This document shows positions 7,907 to 20,118 of a stretch of 64,000 bases of DNA, one piece after another. This DNA comes from Acinetobacter phage ABPH49. The number at the start of each line of letters is the position of its first letter. Positions within the stretch are counted from its first letter, which is position 1. The position numbers and the translations under genes are program-made. The notes under the pieces are model-generated. The model was given only the letters and a program-made list of their open reading frames with translations, had not been told where the DNA came from and searched no databases. The stretch lies in sequence record MH533020.1; one strand, 5' to 3'.

Positions 7907-8102
7907 AGATGCTCTCCAAGTCTAACCACTGATCAAGACCAACAGCCTTTCCATCGGTCTTCCGGTATTTAGTAATCTTGCCAGTTGAGCACTGGACCGC
8001 ACTGACCCAGTATTTCTGACCCCCGTCCCGCAGTTGCTCTGACCAACCCCACCCGAGGGTGTTGCTGATCTTGCCTCTGTGAGTGAATTCTTTCTTAGCC
8101 AT
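7893..8102 (-). CDS. Hypothetical protein (69 aa, Trp/Gly-rich)
   Basis: ORF with a GGAGG RBS. Confidence 0.55.
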   Translation of the reverse strand: MAKKEFTHRGKISNTLGWGWSEQLRDGGQKYWVSAVQCSTGKITKYRKTDGKAVGLDQWLDLESIYESR

Positions 8103-8156: not shown

Positions 8157-8447
8157 TCATGTCCGATTCATCATAGAAGAATCCTTGGTGGCACCCATTT
8201 CCCCGGCAAACATGGGCTTTAGCTTTTTTCGTTGCCGGATGATCCAGAATCCACTGTGACCACCTTTCCCAACCTCCTCGAGGTAACCTTTGGAGATCAG
8301 GCCTTCCGCCACCTTTCCGATTTTAACAGGTAACAGGCAGTCCCCGTCCCAATACTGGGTTTTTCGACGAGGACTGGCCTCTATCTCCCAGCCAAATACA
8401 ACAGCAGCTTGGAGGAAACTTGCCTCGCGTTTGTTAATCTTGCTCAT
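8157..8447 (-). CDS. Hypothetical protein, possible winged-helix fold (96 aa from the ATG at 8447)
   Basis: MSKINKREASFLQAAVVFGW...; 1-nt TGATG overlap with the HD gene stop. Confidence 0.45.
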   Translation of the reverse strand: MSKINKREASFLQAAVVFGWEIEASPRRKTQYWDGDCLLPVKIGKVAEGLISKGYLEEVGKGGHSGFWIIRQRKKLKPMFAGEMGATKDSSMMNRT

Positions 8448-8926
8448 CACTGACCCCCGTGAAGGATTTCGTGCAGCTGGCGGGCAGAGTCCAGACGAAC
8501 CCACATCGCGTGGTATTTACGCATACGCAGCAGATCCTTGTCGGTAATGCCCTTCAGGCGGCGAATGTCGGTATTGTGGCGCAGGTCGGCCAGCTTAACC
8601 AGTGTTGCATTCGGGCTTTGCATCAGGCCATTGAGGTATTCCTCAGGCGTCTGACCTTCCTTCTTGGTCATGCGGTCGACAATGTCCACGACGGACTTGT
8701 CAAATCCGGCCTCGAGGAGGTATTCCAAAGTGACGTTGGTATCTTCCACCAGATCGTGCATTACCGCAGCCGCTTTCACCAACGGGTCCTGCGACTTGAC
8801 GTAGTGCATCACTTTCAAGCAGTGCAGGATGTATGGTTGACCACCCTTGTCAAACTGGCCGTGGTGATGGGTAGCTGCCAGATAGATTGCTTTAGCCAGT
8901 TGTTCTTCTTTGCTCATCAGTTCCAT
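8447..8926 (-). CDS. HD-domain phosphohydrolase (MESH1/SpoT-hydrolase-like, 159 aa)
   Basis: AATHHHGQFDKGGQPYILHCLKV ... MHDLVEDT, an H..HD metal-binding pattern. AGGAG RBS. Confidence 0.8.
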   Translation of the reverse strand: MELMSKEEQLAKAIYLAATHHHGQFDKGGQPYILHCLKVMHYVKSQDPLVKAAAVMHDLVEDTNVTLEYLLEAGFDKSVVDIVDRMTKKEGQTPEEYLNGLMQSPNATLVKLADLRHNTDIRRLKGITDKDLLRMRKYHAMWVRLDSARQLHEILHGGQ

Positions 8927-11961: not shown

Positions 11962-12969
11962 ATGACTCTGCAAACTCAAATCTCTACTATCAAAGATGTA
12001 AACCGCGCTTATGGCTACACCGATTGTGGCTCTCTGGTCCGCAAACTGGGTAACAAGAAGCTGAATGCAGCTGACCGAAACATCGCGTATGACCTGAACT
12101 TTGACGACCTCCTGATGATGGGTTATAAACTCTCTGGCAACGGCACCTGTGACTATACCGGCTTACCTTTCTTCGGTACCGATAACGAAGCCTTCGCCCC
12201 GACCATCGAGCGTATCGACGACTGCAAGGGCTATGTCCGTGGCAATATCGCCATTGTTGGTGCCCGGGCAAACTATCTCAAAGATAAGTTTATCGACAAG
12301 AACCATCAGGACCCTTCCGATCTGGAGCTGAGCAAAGACGACATCAAGATCATCAACGCCATGCTGCCGCGTGTACACGCCAAGGGTTATCTGGAAGCCC
12401 TGAAGGGGAAATACATCCCTAACTTCGCAACCGAAGAAGAACTGGTAAAAATGCTGGACGAGAAGTGGTTCTTACCATCACTCCACCGCATCAACGACCA
12501 GCTGGAAGAGATCGCCAAAGGATCTGCTCCAGAGGATGGTAACATTTCCCTTCAGGGCGTGGGTGCGAAACTGGAAGTTCCTGAGGTGGATACCTCAGAA
12601 GAGGTTGATGCAGCACCTCTGGAGATCGACACCTCAACCCCGGCAGAAGATGAAGCAGAGAAGCCTTCTTTGCCAGATGATGTGGAGATTGCCGCGAGTT
12701 ACGCAAAACTCTGCCGGGCACTGGGTAAAGTGATGACTGTGAATATCACCTTCAGCCAGTACAAGAGTATCTACACCAACAAGCGTTGCCCGTTCACCGG
12801 TGAAGAGTTGACAGAGCGTTACCCTCTGATCCTCGACCGATCGTTGCCTCTGGAGTCTGGCAACGTGAAGATGACCAGCAACCGAGTTGGGCAGGCAATG
12901 AACGAATTTATCGACGCCACAGGCCTGTCTGTTTTCGAACTGGCTAAAAACCTGAAGAAGTTGGCGTAA
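11962..12969 (+). CDS. Hypothetical protein with two degenerate Endonuclease-VII/HNH-like repeats separated by an acidic linker (335 aa)
   Basis: Repeat 1: CDYTGLPFFG...PTIERIDDCKGYVRGNIAIVGARAN. Repeat 2: KRCPFTGEEL...LILDRSLPLESGNVKMTSNRVG. Pattern C..TG...(D/E)R.D...G.VRGN...V.AN, but the catalytic His pair is missing. Confidence 0.6.
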   Translation: MTLQTQISTIKDVNRAYGYTDCGSLVRKLGNKKLNAADRNIAYDLNFDDLLMMGYKLSGNGTCDYTGLPFFGTDNEAFAPTIERIDDCKGYVRGNIAIVGARANYLKDKFIDKNHQDPSDLELSKDDIKIINAMLPRVHAKGYLEALKGKYIPNFATEEELVKMLDEKWFLPSLHRINDQLEEIAKGSAPEDGNISLQGVGAKLEVPEVDTSEEVDAAPLEIDTSTPAEDEAEKPSLPDDVEIAASYAKLCRALGKVMTVNITFSQYKSIYTNKRCPFTGEELTERYPLILDRSLPLESGNVKMTSNRVGQAMNEFIDATGLSVFELAKNLKKLA

Positions 12970-16185: not shown

Positions 16186-16402
16186 TGAGCGTCCAACAGT
16201 CATGTACGCAGTATATGACACCGTACTCAACGAGATCCCGCAGATGGGTCACGTACTGACACCAACTCAAAAGGCGGTGTTTGGTATTGAACGAGATGCA
16301 GCATACATTGTTGCGAACTGCAACTTTAAGCATCCCAATCGGTTCCGAGTAGTTCCTGTTGAGATTTTCCATGTTGACAACGTGGAACAACCCATGCAAT
16401 AA
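16175..16402 (+). CDS. Hypothetical protein (75 aa)
   Basis: GGAGG RBS. Confidence 0.55.
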   Translation: MNNNERPTVMYAVYDTVLNEIPQMGHVLTPTQKAVFGIERDAAYIVANCNFKHPNRFRVVPVEIFHVDNVEQPMQ

Positions 16403-16451
16403 TGCTCCACATGAAGACGGCCCACACCGGGCCGTTATTTAGGAGTTTGAA

Positions 16452-16886
16452 ATGCAATTCGATATTGATGATTACCGTGTGACAATCAAAGACAGCAAGT
16501 CTGACACGATTATCGATGCCCTCTTTGGACACCACCCGGGCAATAAGTTTGCGGTGATCTCCCTCCCAGATGAGTTGATGCACCCCGCCATAATCCCTTT
16601 TGTGAAGTTTAAGATAAAAATGATGATTGACTTCACGGAGAGAAAGAGTAAGATGAATTCCACTTCTCGATACATTCCCAACCGGGATCGTCCAACGAAG
16701 TGGGTGGTGCGGAAGTTCAAGTCCGAGTTTGAAAAGGTTCATGGTCACGACATTGAGGTCGCGAAGACAAACTGGGATTACAACAAGGCACCAAAGCATA
16801 ACAACACAGGCCGGTTTGGGGACCTGAAAGCATTCTGCGGGATGCGAAAAGGACAGGAACTTGACCTCGTAGCGAAAGGAGAGTGA
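16452..16886 (+). CDS. Hypothetical protein (144 aa)
   Basis: AGGAG RBS. Confidence 0.6.
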   Translation: MQFDIDDYRVTIKDSKSDTIIDALFGHHPGNKFAVISLPDELMHPAIIPFVKFKIKMMIDFTERKSKMNSTSRYIPNRDRPTKWVVRKFKSEFEKVHGHDIEVAKTNWDYNKAPKHNNTGRFGDLKAFCGMRKGQELDLVAKGE

Positions 16887-16887
16887 G

Positions 16888-17403
16888 ATGACTACGCCAT
16901 ACTCAGAGTACATGGCCCGTCAGTTGGAGGGGTGTGTAAACGACCCAGAGGGTCCTCGATACTACGGTAATATTGAGGTGGATCTCGAAGATATAACTGA
17001 TCAGCAAGAAAAAGCGTTGATGGAACAGTTCAAATCTATCGGCGTGTCCTGTCAGATGATAAACAATCTGGACAGGCCGGTATTGATAGGTTTTGAGAGT
17101 GAAGAATACATAGGTTGGTCAATTTTATCCTGCGTAACTCTCGGCCTGTTTAACAAGACTCATTACGATGTTGGTCGAGATCTTGTCCGGGTGAGTATGT
17201 ATGCCATGAAGTATGGACTGCAAAAATACACCGTGGAGGAGAATGCGGTGTATCTCGAGTTCATGATTTATTTGGCAAACAACCAGTTCTGTAATTGGGA
17301 AGATGCGGTAACACGGGTAAACTCTGTGTACCCAGATCTCCCCCGGTCAGAGATCAACAAGGCTGGGGATCGTATTCGTCGTGAAGTTGCGGGGTTGGAA
17401 TAA
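16888..17403 (+). CDS. Hypothetical protein (171 aa)
   Basis: AAGGAGAG RBS. Confidence 0.6.
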   Translation: MTTPYSEYMARQLEGCVNDPEGPRYYGNIEVDLEDITDQQEKALMEQFKSIGVSCQMINNLDRPVLIGFESEEYIGWSILSCVTLGLFNKTHYDVGRDLVRVSMYAMKYGLQKYTVEENAVYLEFMIYLANNQFCNWEDAVTRVNSVYPDLPRSEINKAGDRIRREVAGLE

Positions 17404-17900
17404 TGATTGATTACCAAATTGGGGATTTGTTCCCACACGCTTACGCCTCGGTACTGGAAGGCCACCCAACGGTTGTTGCACACTGTTGCAACTGCTTCAA
17501 CACGATGAAGTCTGGGATTGCACCGCTGGTTGCGAAGAACTTCCCAGAGGCAGAGTCCGTTGATAAGCTGACCACCAAAGGTGATCGTGGCAAACTGGGA
17601 ACCACAACAGAGGCCTTCAGTCAGGGCATTCTGGTGTTCAACCTGTACGGCCAGTTTGGCTACTGGAAACGTCGTGAAGGTAAGATGGACCTCGAGTACC
17701 CAGCCCTTGACTCTGCCCTCGGTCAAATGGCCGCAAGCATTCACGCAAAGTGCCGGGTCAATGATATCCGTCCCAACGAGGTGAAGGTACTCTTGCCGAT
17801 GATCGGTGCCGGTCTGGCAGGTGGTGATTGGAACGTAATTTCCCAGCTGATCGAGAAAAATCTCGGTAAATTCAGCGTTACTGTTTTCAAATTGAAATAG
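17403..17900 (+). CDS. Macro-domain protein (ADP-ribose-binding / ADP-ribosyl hydrolase fold, 165 aa)
   Basis: VVAHCCNCFNTMKSGIA (N-terminal macro motif) and LLPMIGAGLAGGDW (G-rich diphosphate-binding loop). TAATG overlap. Confidence 0.75.
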   Translation: MIDYQIGDLFPHAYASVLEGHPTVVAHCCNCFNTMKSGIAPLVAKNFPEAESVDKLTTKGDRGKLGTTTEAFSQGILVFNLYGQFGYWKRREGKMDLEYPALDSALGQMAASIHAKCRVNDIRPNEVKVLLPMIGAGLAGGDWNVISQLIEKNLGKFSVTVFKLK

Positions 17901-17908
17901 GAGAGAAG

Positions 17909-19276
17909 ATGAGCGAGTACAAAGATCAGTACGAAGGTAAAGTGTTTGGTGGTGAGTTGGCCCTGATGGCCTGCTATGCTTGCAACCTGTACGGTAATCT
18001 GCGTAAAGACATGCGGGGCCGATTCAAAGACAACACTTCTGTGGAGACGTCTTCCGTGGAGAAGCTGGTTGTTGACAACGACACCATGATCGCGATCACC
18101 CGCAACACCGCGTATGCGTTGGTCGGCCCGTTGGTTGAGAGAGCGGTTAGTAAATCCTACGGCATGATGGCTCTATGGGACGCTGCTGTAGCAGAGCACA
18201 AAGTGGCTGTCGTTGCAGGGTTCAAAGGCCGCAAGTACCCAAGTACCGGCCAATTCCGCAATGCGATCCGCCATGCAAAACAAGTGCTGTCGTTCGAAGG
18301 CCTTGACGCCGAGGGTAATCCGATGTACGCTCCCGGCCCATACCCGAAAATTGCCTACGGCGGTACTGTTAAGATCCACGGCACCAACGGGAGTTTCTTC
18401 AAGCTTCACCCGGAAGCCGAGATCGTTTACCAGTCCAAAGAGCGCGTTCTGTCTCTGGAGAGCGACAACTATGGCTTCTATGCCAAGTACAAGCCGAAAG
18501 AGGACGTAATTAACGGCATCTTCGGTGAGGTCGTCGAATACCTGAAAGGATCCGGCCTTGATGATGGTGAGATTTATCCGATCCGCATCAGTGGTGAGTA
18601 CGCCGGTGAAGGTATCCAGCGCGGGGTTGCAGTTGGTGAAGTGCCACGCTTCTTTGCCATCTTCGGTATTGCCTTTGGCCCAGAGCAGAACTGGTTGCCG
18701 GAAGTTGATGGTTTCGGTCATGATCTTGAAGATCATCGCATCTTCAACATCGTCGACCTCGGCGGCGTAGACATTCTGTATCTGGACGTGGAAAACCCTC
18801 AGGCAATCCAGAATGAGCTGATTGAGCGGACGCTCGCGGTAGAGAAAGAGTGCCCGGTTGGTAAGTTCTTCGGCGTGACTGGTGTCGGAGAAGGTAAGGT
18901 ATGGAAGCCTCTGGCTGCGGAATACGCAGGGGACACTGGCCTGTGGTTCAAGGTGAAGGGTGAGAAGCACTCCACCACCAAGGTCAAGACACTGGCGGAG
19001 ATCGACCCGGTTAAGCTGGCTAACATCGCGGAGTTTGTTGAGTACGCACTGACCGATGCTCGTCTGGATCAGGGGTTGGCAGAACTCTTCCCAGATGGTA
19101 AGCTGGATATCCGTCGCACTGGTGACCTGCTGCGTTGGGTTAACCGCGACATCCACAAAGAAGAGTCTGACGTTCTGGAGAAGTCCGGCCTGACGATGAA
19201 GGATATCTCCAACGCCGTCGGTCTGAAGACCCGCACTTGGTTCTTCGAGCAGATTAACAATCAGGAGGTGGTGTAA
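17909..19276 (+). CDS. Rnl2-family RNA ligase with an N-terminal extension of about 150 aa (455 aa)
   Basis: Nucleotidyltransferase motifs KIHGTN (I), GEYAGEGIQ (III), EGKVWKP (IV) and FKVKGEKH (V) match T4 Rnl2 (KIHGTN / GEFAGPGIQ / EGYVLKP / KCK). Confidence 0.8.
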   Translation: MSEYKDQYEGKVFGGELALMACYACNLYGNLRKDMRGRFKDNTSVETSSVEKLVVDNDTMIAITRNTAYALVGPLVERAVSKSYGMMALWDAAVAEHKVAVVAGFKGRKYPSTGQFRNAIRHAKQVLSFEGLDAEGNPMYAPGPYPKIAYGGTVKIHGTNGSFFKLHPEAEIVYQSKERVLSLESDNYGFYAKYKPKEDVINGIFGEVVEYLKGSGLDDGEIYPIRISGEYAGEGIQRGVAVGEVPRFFAIFGIAFGPEQNWLPEVDGFGHDLEDHRIFNIVDLGGVDILYLDVENPQAIQNELIERTLAVEKECPVGKFFGVTGVGEGKVWKPLAAEYAGDTGLWFKVKGEKHSTTKVKTLAEIDPVKLANIAEFVEYALTDARLDQGLAELFPDGKLDIRRTGDLLRWVNRDIHKEESDVLEKSGLTMKDISNAVGLKTRTWFFEQINNQEVV

Positions 19277-19632
19277 TGGACATCATTCAAAGCCGTGATG
19301 GTAAGGTGGTGATCGCTGGAAACAGCCAGAGCTTGGTTATCTCCAACTCCAACGGGGTTGTGACAGTGAATGGTGTGGAGATCTCACAGGTTTCCAACTG
19401 CTCGCTGGTCATCAAAATCGATGGCAACGCCGGACCAGTAACCCTGAATGGCAGCGGCAATGTCGAAGTTTGGGGCAGTGTTGACGGCAACGTGCAGTCA
19501 ATGTCTGGTGACATCGATATTCGCGGTTCGGTAGGTAGCGGTGTAACAAGTGCATCCGGCAATATCGAGGTCGGTGAAGAAGTCTGGGGCAACGTAACAA
19601 CAATGTCCGGGGATATCCTCACCAAGCGATAA
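19276..19632 (+). CDS. Bactofilin-like beta-helical repeat protein (118 aa)
   Basis: Repeated G-x-V-x-G-x-(I/V) hexapeptide-like pattern (VNGVEISQ/VTLNGSGNVEVWGSVDGNVQSMSGDIDIRGSVGSGV...) resembling the bactofilin DUF583 domain. AGGAGG RBS. Confidence 0.5.
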   Translation: MDIIQSRDGKVVIAGNSQSLVISNSNGVVTVNGVEISQVSNCSLVIKIDGNAGPVTLNGSGNVEVWGSVDGNVQSMSGDIDIRGSVGSGVTSASGNIEVGEEVWGNVTTMSGDILTKR

Positions 19633-19639
19633 GAACCTT

Positions 19640-19667
19640 TTGCCGCCCTTAGGTGGGCGGCTTTTCC
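19640..19667 (+). terminator. Intrinsic terminator GCCGCCC-ttaggt-GGGCGGC + TTTTCC
   Basis: Seen directly after the 19276-19632 gene. Confidence 0.6.
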
Positions 19668-19680
19668 CATTGGAGGTAAA

Positions 19681-20118
19681 ATGCGATTATGTGCCACTCT
19701 GTTGGCCTTTACACTGTCTTTGGCACCAGCTTTATCGTATGCCCAAGAGAGTGCAAAGAAACCCCATCAGCGCGTCATACACACGTGCAGCACTAAAGAC
19801 AACTCGACGTATGCCCTTGCCTGCAACATCTACAAGGAGGCCGAAGGAGAGGGTCTGGAGGGGCAAATGGCGATCGGTTTTGTGACGATCAACCGGGCGC
19901 AGCATGATAAGTTCCCGACGTCGGTCCGAAAAGTAGTTTACCAGCACAAACAATTCAGCTGGACAATCTACAAAAACGGGTATAAGATTCGTAATCAAGA
20001 GGTGTGGGAACAGAGCATTAAAATCTCTAAGTTCCTGATAAAGATAAGGAATATGCCGGTGCTGTATAATTACCTTGACAACACACATGGTTCCCTGTAC
20101 TTTCACACCACGCAATAA
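19681..20118 (+). CDS. Secreted SleB-like cell-wall hydrolase (signal peptide + Hydrolase_2 domain); endolysin candidate
   Basis: N-terminal signal peptide MRLCATLLAFTLSLAPALSYA. LACNIYKEAEGEGLEGQMAIGFVTINRAQ matches the SleB/CwlJ catalytic region. GGAGG RBS. Confidence 0.7.
   Translation: MRLCATLLAFTLSLAPALSYAQESAKKPHQRVIHTCSTKDNSTYALACNIYKEAEGEGLEGQMAIGFVTINRAQHDKFPTSVRKVVYQHKQFSWTIYKNGYKIRNQEVWEQSIKISKFLIKIRNMPVLYNYLDNTHGSLYFHTTQ

Follow-up and report, generated by a model that had tools for sequence, protein, structure and literature searches.

Closest described systems

Rnl2-type RNA ligases seal nicks with 3'-OH and 5'-PO4 ends and leave no 2'-phosphate. T4 Rnl2 was reportedly described in 2002, and the role of Rnl2-type ligases in phages is said to have been unclear since; we know of no established biological role for the T4 enzyme.

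The ligase that is the main subject here has T4 RNA ligase 2 (gp24.1; PDB 2HVQ, 1S68) and T. brucei REL1 (1XDN) among its closest known relatives. Both differ from it in being only about 20% identical and in lacking its N-terminal domain of about 105 residues. The Rnl5-type nick-sealing ligases (Naegleria NgrRnl, PDB 5COT; Deinococcus DraRnl) also belong among the closest known systems. A further comparison is with the Pnkp/Hen1 and Pnkp1-Rnl-Hen1 repair systems (4DRF, 4XRP), since two relatives of the ligase, P0026 and P0032, have an N-terminal metallophosphoesterase (PF00149) of the end-healing type of such systems. In contrast, the ligase described below has a small beta-barrel domain and no phosphoesterase.

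T4 RNA ligases 1 and 2 directly reseal the single 3'-OH/5'-P nick that a Toprim nuclease leaves in tRNA (PMC12445682). In some phages, comparative studies have tied Macro domains to NAD-dependent RNA repair (PMC7824862, PMC9503650), and an RNA-repair neighbourhood with sirtuin, cREC, kinase and MazG genes has been described for rV5 and Mydo (PMC9503650). A small macrodomain protein of T4, Tk.4 (AdfM), is required for resistance to DarTG2, as established genetically (2025 preprint, bioRxiv 10.1101/2025.11.20.689424).

The locus and its limits

The stretch analysed here (the window) comprises 64,000 nucleotides of phage ABPH49 and matches Serratia phage vB_SmaM-Kashira, a member of the Vequintavirinae, at 99.6% identity. 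An earlier note, made from the letters alone, had placed three consecutive genes on the + strand at 17403-17900, 17909-19276 and 19276-19632. The three ORFs are found at these positions and encode 165, 455 and 118 amino acids, respectively. The features of the locus, apart from the domains of the ligase (see below), are as follows.

16374..16403, + strand: sigma-70-like promoter match, TTGACA-18 nt-AATAAT with TG, the best match of a consensus scan (11 of 12 positions)
16452..16886, + strand: upstream co-oriented ORF of 144 aa, phrog_12513
16888..17403, + strand: upstream ORF of 171 aa whose stop overlaps the macrodomain start (TAATG)
17403..17900, + strand: macrodomain protein of 165 aa, T4 Tk.4/AdfM family (phrog_335 at E 1e-47; PDB matches; BLASTP to Tk.4)
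19276..19632, + strand: beta-solenoid-type repeat protein of 118 aa, phrog_3163, with four 17-residue repeats (SG[DN][IV] at residues 60, 77, 94 and 111)
19642..19665, + strand: GC-rich hairpin GCCGCCC-UUAGGU-GGGCGGC followed by UUUU, with a computed fold of -19.4 kcal/mol

The genes are tightly packed. The overlap of the 171-aa ORF with the macrodomain start lies at 17401-17405, and a second TAATG at 19274-19278 joins the stop of the ligase to the start of the third gene. The ligase ATG is preceded by a GGAGAG Shine-Dalgarno sequence within a spacer of 8 nt.

The promoter-like site is a candidate start of the transcription unit, recognized as a consensus match alone in a scan that returned 12 sites against 7.5 expected. 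The 144-aa ORF is kept upstream of the block in ChuuTotoro, SSBI34 and relatives L010, L011 and L012. The 171-aa ORF has no family match in the Pfam and PHROG comparison; Kashira and ChuuTotoro keep it, as does L010 in part. At the other end, the hairpin recurs with the same stem at the same position in ChuuTotoro and L011 (z = -3.3 in L011) and forms an intrinsic-terminator-like element that may close the gene run. The consensus terminator scan missed it because it is followed by only four U. The gene run probably reaches from the site near 16374 to the conserved hairpin at 19642-19665. A PIF1/Dda-like helicase lies 1.1 kb downstream of the ligase, followed by more helicases and a polymerase, and the annotation of the Kashira genome lists a separate DNA ligase and 20 tRNA genes. 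On balance, we regard the region as the end of a tightly packed, co-oriented series of accessory genes, in a phage of the Kashira/ABPH49 type of Vequintavirinae.

An Rnl2-like RNA ligase

The second and longest of the three genes encodes a protein with the following domains.

17909..18223, + strand: N-terminal domain, up to about residue 105 of the ligase; homologue of phrog_16099, a small phage protein that stands free
18224..18964, + strand: nucleotidyltransferase domain, Rnl2-like RNA ligase (motif I K155, III E230, IV E328, V K348/K350)
19001..19273, + strand: all-helical C-terminal domain, aligned to the C-domain of T4 Rnl2 (invariant R385 and D414)

Motif I, with its lysine in KxHGxN, and motifs III, IV and V of the covalent nucleotidyltransferases are all present. 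The residues K155, E230, E328 and K348/K350 are invariant among 45 homologues and align with K35, E99, E204 and K225/K227 of T4 Rnl2. In the C-terminal domain, R385 and D414 align with R266 and D292 of the T4 enzyme, and residues 367-452 are helical in the AF2 model. This full-length model is confident throughout, linker helices included (pLDDT 90, pTM 0.76), and its closest structural neighbours are Rnl2-type ligases, not DNA ligases or capping enzymes. A search of PDB with the single sequence returned nothing; with the family profile, T4 Rnl2 was the sole match, over both domains, the alignment to 2hvq reaching residue 327.

The intact active site, the profile match to T4 Rnl2 and the presence of a separate DNA ligase in this phage type all bear out the proposal that the gene encodes an Rnl2-like RNA ligase. 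The family models give a mixed picture. Most homologues carry a precomputed match to the Pfam RNA_ligase model (PF09414), which the earlier note had named for a profile search, but the protein of the window stays below the threshold (19.2 bits versus 27). With the NCBIfam equivalog model of Rnl2 (TIGR02307) it scores 15.2 bits against a cut-off of 197. With these motifs and this fold, the 455-aa protein is rather likely, in our view, to be an Rnl2-like RNA ligase that depends on ATP. By analogy with the family, lysine 155 would be adenylylated, AMP would be passed to the 5'-phosphate and the 3'-OH/5'-PO4 nick would then be sealed. The substrate may be a structured RNA, for instance a broken tRNA.

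The N-terminal domain is a fused small gene

The ligase had been credited with about 150 extra N-terminal residues of unknown function. The excess is smaller: the nearest unfused homologues are shorter by about 105-108 residues, and measured against motif I of T4 it comes to about 120. Nor is the domain an orphan: its homologue is a separate small protein encoded directly upstream of the ligase in sister phages. The domain consists of five beta-strands followed by a helical hairpin, and residues 1 to about 100 show homology to the standalone proteins over the full length. Of the 17 phage records common to both tables, 16 have the standalone gene 29-62 nt upstream of the ligase; in PVP-SE1, one ORF of 51 aa intervenes. 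The N-terminus of the ligase is therefore a gene fusion of a small beta-barrel and helical hairpin, and the new detail is that the ligase took in the small gene found just upstream of it in sister phages.

Detection of this family depends on the type of search. Queried by itself, the N-domain returned nothing in a word-index homology search, while an exhaustive search of representatives did find relatives. Family profiles of the N-domain and of the third protein gave compositional matches only, or none, against PDB. An apparent match of the N-domain in Vibrio phage Brizo was discounted as a tblastn artefact, since its long alignment runs through an upstream frame crowded with stop codons.

The family (phrog_16099 and relatives) weakly resembles DUF6957. 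In phrog_16099 and in the GenBank records of the free-standing form, it bears the label 'methyltransferase'. Neither a catalytic methyltransferase fold nor an AdoMet-binding motif was found in the protein, and the label appears to stem from weak similarity to a non-catalytic domain of DNMT1 only.

What does this domain do? It would act as an accessory subunit of the ligase, in substrate targeting or regulation. It is not an obligate one, since in L012 and L013, which have no ligase, the standalone protein adjoins the macrodomain. This persistence, together with the wide occurrence of the beta-barrel core as proteins of 60-130 aa in unrelated phages, T4-like and T7-like groups included, could also mean that the N-domain is an autonomous phage factor, such as an inhibitor or sensor-binding protein directed against a host system. 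Such a factor would not need the ligase, and the fusion would reflect the neutral loss of a 30-60 nt spacer. We consider this distinctly unlikely. The fusion is kept in several lineages, with only 41-56% identity between the ligases (P0004-P0007 and P0009) and about 29-41% between the N-domains, and this persistence speaks for selection on it. Adjacency is nearly universal wherever the ligase is present, and the confident model of the full-length protein extends through the linker helices.

A more specific version of the accessory-subunit reading can be offered only tentatively, and it is unlikely to hold in every part. It assumes that the beta-barrel/helical-hairpin protein, free or fused, is a dedicated partner of phage Rnl2-like ligases that has so far gone unrecognized. 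The two would form a minimal RNA repair system independent of end healing, in which the N-domain might confer specificity for the substrate or the defence. Such a system might reseal the 3'-OH/5'-phosphate tRNA nicks made by metal-dependent nucleases, either Toprim effectors of defence systems (for instance PARIS AriB or OLD-family proteins) or PIN toxins.

Which breaks might the ligase seal?

A T4-type kinase-phosphatase (Pnkp) was not found in the Kashira genome, either in its annotation or by a motif test in which no ORF combined a P-loop with DxDGT; the annotation is sparse, the test is simple, and a divergent enzyme could escape both. The breaks open to the ligase would then be those whose ends are a 3'-OH and a 5'-phosphate from the start, for example those that metal-dependent Toprim or PIN nucleases leave. 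Neither a kinase nor a Hen1 methyltransferase was seen near the ligase in the ORF scan, and a sirtuin/cREC/kinase/MazG neighbourhood did not show up among the scanned ORFs, which lie between 8.9 and 17.4 kb of the window. A dNMP kinase gene and a HAD-like gene were considered as a split Pnkp; the pair is unsupported, PHROGs assigning them to dNMP kinase and to 'unknown'.

The ligase could instead have a housekeeping function unrelated to counter-defence, such as RNA processing or circularization, maturation of the phage's own tRNAs, or sealing of nicks in RNA-DNA hybrids during replication. The 20 tRNA genes of Kashira would suit such a function, as would the replication-rich surroundings (the PIF1/Dda-like helicase, the other helicases and the polymerase) and the fact that no natural role is known to have been established for T4 Rnl2. 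However, the close relatives L012 and L013 keep the surrounding genes without the ligase, which fits an accessory and not a core function. In P0026 and P0032, this ligase is joined to a calcineurin-like phosphoesterase, as is typical of RNA end healing and repair, and a dedicated DNA ligase is present. With these observations, a housekeeping role seems very improbable to us.

The macrodomain belongs to the Tk.4/AdfM family

The first of the three genes had been read as a macrodomain from its ADP-ribose-binding signature, and this reading holds. The protein has the loop motifs AHCCNCF (residues 26-32) and MIGAGLAGGDW (133-143), both common to Tk.4, and it falls into PHROG 335. Sequence matches in PDB are the macrodomains BT1257 (2fg1), 2afc, SCO6735 (5e3b) and yeast Poa1p (6lfu), with E values from 1.6e-7 to 2.6e-5. 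The Pfam Macro model (PF01661), proposed in the earlier note as a check, gives no match even at E<=10, and the score with the NCBIfam model of DarG (NF048014) is 15.7 bits versus a threshold of 250.

With T4 Tk.4 (AdfM), the protein shares PHROG 335, both signature motifs and the form of a small stand-alone phage macrodomain. It differs in its diverged sequence (BLASTP E 3e-20, 32% identity across 142 aa) and in its host, which is Serratia whereas that of T4 is E. coli. Since Tk.4 is an anti-DarTG2 factor, the suggestion that the macrodomain reverses DarT-type ADP-ribosylation has an experimental precedent in a homologue (bioRxiv 10.1101/2025.11.20.689424). In this scheme, the macrodomain would strip ADP-ribose from DarT2-modified thymidines in the single-stranded DNA of the phage and so neutralize a DarTG2-type defence. 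Judging from homology, removal of DarT2 lesions is the most likely function.

The best matches among solved structures, Poa1p (6LFU), SCO6735 (5E3B) and BT1257 (2FG1), have the HxCN and P-x-IG-x-GLAGG-x-W motifs in common with the protein; they differ in being cellular enzymes that act on ADP-ribose-1''-phosphate or protein-linked ADP-ribose. Because of the resemblance to Poa1p- and SCO6735-type enzymes, and with an identity to Tk.4 of only 32%, the substrate could also be a protein adduct or a soluble ADP-ribose derivative.

The third gene encodes a repeat protein

The SG[DN][IV] repeats of the third protein are exactly 17 residues apart, and at least four copies occurred in 1 of 20000 shuffled sequences. 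Its tblastn matches comprise 14 records, from phages of Serratia, Klebsiella and Proteus; all for which the taxonomy was looked up belong to the Vequintavirinae.

The protein had been described as a bactofilin homologue. The Pfam Bactofilin model (PF04519) does not match it at E<=10 and scores its homologues below threshold (E 0.015-0.5, 11-16 bits versus 27.9), nor did the family profile find a bactofilin chain in PDB. The L011 homologue, 39.5% identical, passes the Toastrack model (DUF4097, PF13349) with 33.4 bits versus 22.9; the protein of the window itself has no match. Its short repeats, rich in glycine and valine and recurring every 17 residues, resemble those of bactofilins and toastrack proteins and would suit a small right-handed beta-helix, yet it matches neither model. 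By these features, the 118-aa protein is a predicted generic short beta-solenoid, toastrack/bactofilin-like. Nothing that we saw points to joint action with the ligase.

One module or three functions?

The adjacency of the three genes had been taken as the sign of one functional module. In related phages, each gene is lost singly or separated from the others by other small genes: L011 is without the macrodomain, SSBI34 without the third gene, and L012 and L013 without the ligase. Six small genes lie between macrodomain and ligase in PVP-SE1 and three in FENT2, and in PhiW-14 the two are about 20 kb apart. In T4, tk.4 and rnlB are far apart as well.

The earlier note had also linked macrodomain and ligase through ADP-ribose-1''-phosphate (Appr-1''-p). 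That route requires a Tpt1/KptA-type 2'-phosphotransferase pathway, and the link fails on family knowledge of Rnl2-type sealing, which leaves no 2'-phosphate. KptA/Tpt1, 2H, sirtuin and cREC were not detected in the flanking 7 kb.

It seems fairly probable, then, that three separate functions are grouped here by shared synteny and do not form one machine. The tight packing and the stop/start overlaps fit co-regulation, which could mean a shared purpose. Taken further, this would make the macrodomain, the ligase and the repeat protein one integrated cassette in a single pathway of nucleic-acid repair or anti-ADP-ribosylation, in which, for example, the macrodomain clears ADP-ribose by-products or RNA-linked ADP-ribose before sealing. 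We hold such a cassette to be quite improbable. Its genes do lie within one span from the promoter-like site to the conserved hairpin, no more than about 1-4 kb separates macrodomain and ligase in Vequintavirinae and some Vibrio Thalassavirus phages, and the association of Macro domains with NAD-dependent RNA repair in some phages lends it plausibility. Against this, close relatives lose each gene individually and keep the others, the genes intervening in FENT2 and PVP-SE1 are unrelated, and the gap in PhiW-14 is wide. The macrodomain family has homologues in 2850 phage records versus 153 for the ligase clade. KptA/Tpt1, 2H, sirtuin and cREC were, as said above, not detected in the flanking 7 kb, and Rnl2-type sealing is established to make no Appr>p.

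Implications

The region holds mostly known kinds of accessory genes in a syntenic arrangement, together with a modestly novel ligase fusion. To read it as a single cassette would mislead annotation. The newly described AdfM family of anti-DarT2 macrodomains is now extended to the Vequintavirinae, and the 'methyltransferase' label of the small N-domain protein, an error that recurs in databases, is corrected. For the Rnl2-type ligases of phages, the small protein that is kept upstream of the ligase, and repeatedly fused to it, provides a named candidate partner and, with it, a handle on their role.

Organization of the locus

The three ORFs reported in the earlier note are present at precisely the positions listed here.

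Features of the locus (window positions)
16374-16403, strong promoter-like site, 11 of 12 consensus positions
16888-17403, ORF upstream of the macrodomain gene
17403-17900, macrodomain gene (gene 1), 165 aa
17909-19276, ligase gene (gene 2), 455 aa
19276-19632, repeat-protein gene (gene 3), 118 aa
19642-19665, GC-rich hairpin followed by UUUU, directly 3' of the repeat-protein gene

The three-gene region is 99.6% identical to that of Serratia phage vB_SmaM-Kashira (ON287374), a member of the Vequintavirinae with a 144.5-kb genome. TAATG overlaps join the upstream ORF to gene 1 and gene 2 to gene 3, and 8 nt separate the macrodomain stop from the ligase start, which is preceded by a GGAGAG Shine-Dalgarno sequence. 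The hairpin (stem GCCGCCC/GGGCGGC, then the U-run) lies between the repeat-protein and hydrolase genes. It was overlooked by a consensus terminator scan as it is followed by four U only. An equivalent site is found in phage ChuuTotoro and in a metagenomic relative, L011 (~8017-8040 in the related locus L002, ~6049-6070 in L011), and the stem is kept although the surrounding sequence has diverged. Given the promoter-like site and the hairpin, the transcription unit likely comprises five genes: two unknown ORFs, then those for the macrodomain, ligase and repeat protein.

Downstream, at 19681-20118, a 1-bp deletion around position 20112 relative to Kashira (CCACGGCAA to CCAC-GCAA) shifts the reading frame and leaves a SleB-type cell-wall hydrolase of only 145 aa, versus 172 aa in Kashira. 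This could be a true frameshift or a sequencing error.

Two other ORFs of the window deserve mention. The product of 8447-8926 (minus strand), annotated in Kashira as 'GTP pyrophosphokinase', matches HD_4/HD hydrolase domains only (PF13328, 37 bits), which suggests a small alarmone hydrolase and not a synthetase. Possibly, it counters (p)ppGpp/ppApp-based or toxSAS-type host systems. The 335-aa ORF at 11962-12969 (plus strand) matches PHROG 3118 'HNH endonuclease' and shows additional similarity, in its N-terminal part, to the Srd anti-sigma and sigma-70 decoy families (phrog_4592, phrog_1400).

The macrodomain protein

The Pfam Macro model, suggested earlier as a check, gives no match with the gene 1 protein, but a sequence search of solved structures does recover macrodomains: BT1257 (2fg1), 2afc, SCO6735 (5e3b) and yeast Poa1p (6lfu), with E values of 1.6e-7 to 2.6e-5 and both loop motifs in common. 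The protein is a member of a known family, PHROG 335 (E 1e-47). This family spans 2850 phage records and is represented in T4-like phages by gene tk.4. Aligned directly with T4 Tk.4, the gene 1 protein is 32% identical across 142 residues (E 3e-20). On a DarTG2 host, tk.4 is the single T4 gene required, and its clean knockout sensitised T4, hence the new name adfM (2025 preprint, bioRxiv 10.1101/2025.11.20.689424). Since its homologue plays this part in T4, gene 1 is best read, by homology only, as encoding a putative anti-DarT2 ADP-ribosylglycohydrolase. Given its similarity to Poa1p and SCO6735, the enzyme might instead process soluble or protein-linked ADP-ribose.

In Vibrio Thalassavirus phages, a PRPP synthetase gene adjoins the Tk.4-like macrodomain gene. 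In Kashira (52.4-60.3 kb, beyond the window), the 20-tRNA cluster adjoins an NAD+ salvage pair, the genes for nicotinamide phosphoribosyltransferase and ribose-phosphate pyrophosphokinase.

The ligase

Residues 108-450 of the gene 2 protein match PHROG 548 'RNA ligase' (E 4e-58). It stays below the thresholds of the curated models, both for Pfam RNA_ligase, the check proposed earlier (19 bits, below the cut-off of 27), and for NCBIfam Rnl2 (15 bits versus 197), and the single sequence finds no match in the PDB. A profile built from 45 homologues, however, retrieves T4 Rnl2 as its sole PDB match, with both domains covered (E 8.6e-9). K155 (the catalytic lysine, in KIHGTN), E230, E328 and K348/K350 are invariant in the family, as are R385 and D414 of the C-domain, which align with R266 and D292 of T4 Rnl2. 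The near residue-for-residue match to T4 Rnl2 noticed earlier thus holds for the motifs but not outside them. The profile match and the invariant catalytic residues indicate that gene 2 encodes a genuine, distant Rnl2-like RNA ligase. It belongs to a known family, and the ABPH49 record already annotates the 100% identical protein as 'RNA ligase 2'. Kashira carries a separate DNA ligase gene and 20 tRNA genes.

Two metagenomic ligases of this clade (P0026 and P0032, 524-525 aa) are fused at the N-terminus to a calcineurin-like metallophosphoesterase (PF00149), a healing-plus-sealing architecture. The phosphoesterase, standing in place of the N-domain, supports an RNA-repair setting for the clade. 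The ligase of Pseudaeromonas phage KLEP7 (P0053) contains an intein.

The repeat protein

The gene 3 protein (PHROG 3163) carries SG[DN][IV] at residues 60, 77, 94 and 111, that is, four exact 17-residue repeats. By tblastn it occurs in 14 phage records only, each that of a Serratia, Klebsiella or Proteus phage with a Kashira-like genome size. The Pfam Bactofilin model does not match the protein, and its homologues score 11-16 bits, below the cut-off of 27.9. One homologue (39.5% identical) exceeds the cut-off of Toastrack DUF4097. The protein is better described as a predicted toastrack/bactofilin-like beta-solenoid repeat protein, uncharacterised and apparently ordinary.

One cassette or separate genes?

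The earlier note took the adjacency of the three genes to signify one module. Gene order in related phages and contigs argues otherwise.

Gene order in relatives
PVP-SE1, FENT2 (Seunavirus-type): macrodomain, 3-6 small ORFs, N-domain gene, ligase, 2 small ORFs, repeat protein, SleB-type hydrolase
SSBI34: macrodomain, fused ligase, hydrolase; without repeat protein
L010: macrodomain, 53-aa ORF, fused ligase
L011: fused ligase, repeat protein; without macrodomain
L012, L013: macrodomain, N-domain gene; without ligase

The macrodomain, the ligase and the repeat protein are thus each missing singly from some relative, and in PhiW-14 ~20 kb separate the macrodomain and ligase genes. Such variation suggests that each gene is gained and lost individually inside a syntenic accessory region, and speaks against a single cassette. 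A link between macrodomain and ligase through Appr-1''-p fares no better. That route requires a Tpt1/KptA-type pathway, and sealing by an Rnl2-type ligase leaves no 2'-phosphate. A scan of the flanking ORFs detected neither a Tpt1/KptA-type gene nor one for a 2H protein, sirtuin, cREC or kinase.

The N-terminal domain of the ligase

The N-terminal extension, put earlier at about 150 residues, measures ~105 against the nearest unfused homologues (345-350 aa). Nor is it an orphan: free-standing proteins of 105-130 aa, among them FENT2 CDS0027 and PVP-SE1 gp237 (phrog_16099), both mislabelled 'methyltransferase', are homologous to it over its whole length. Of the 17 phage records found in both the ligase and N-domain tables, 16 place the N-domain gene ahead of the ligase, in the same orientation and 29-62 nt away; in the other, PVP-SE1, a single 51-aa ORF intervenes. 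Kashira, ChuuTotoro and SSBI34 have the fused form, as do several lineages known from metagenomes, with ligases only 41-56% identical. The fusion is thus maintained and no sequencing artefact. When 1.84 billion representatives were searched exhaustively with a profile, 56 N-domain members emerged, nearly all small and stand-alone, the ligase fusion being the sole recognisable multi-domain form.

The conserved adjacency and recurrent fusion suggest, with low confidence, that the N-domain is accessory to the ligase. This is weakened by the metagenomic contigs L012 (3001-3396) and L013 (605-943), where the gene for a free-standing N-domain comes immediately after that for the macrodomain and there is no ligase. 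The N-domain protein may thus have its own role, or one tied to the macrodomain.

Proposed functions

What is new here is that a small, mislabelled domain recurs fused to, or next to, an Rnl2-like ligase. In the Kashira genome, neither the annotation nor a scan for P-loop and DxDGT motifs reveals a T4-type Pnkp, so the ligase would be suited to breaks made by metal-dependent nucleases. Indeed, a single Toprim-made tRNA nick is resealed by commercial T4 Rnl1 and Rnl2 without end healing (PMC12445682). We propose three accessory functions acting independently. The macrodomain would undo DarT2-type DNA ADP-ribosylation, the ligase would seal nicks with 3'-OH and 5'-phosphate ends in structured RNA, tRNA being the most plausible substrate, and the N-domain might, more tentatively, target or regulate the ligase.
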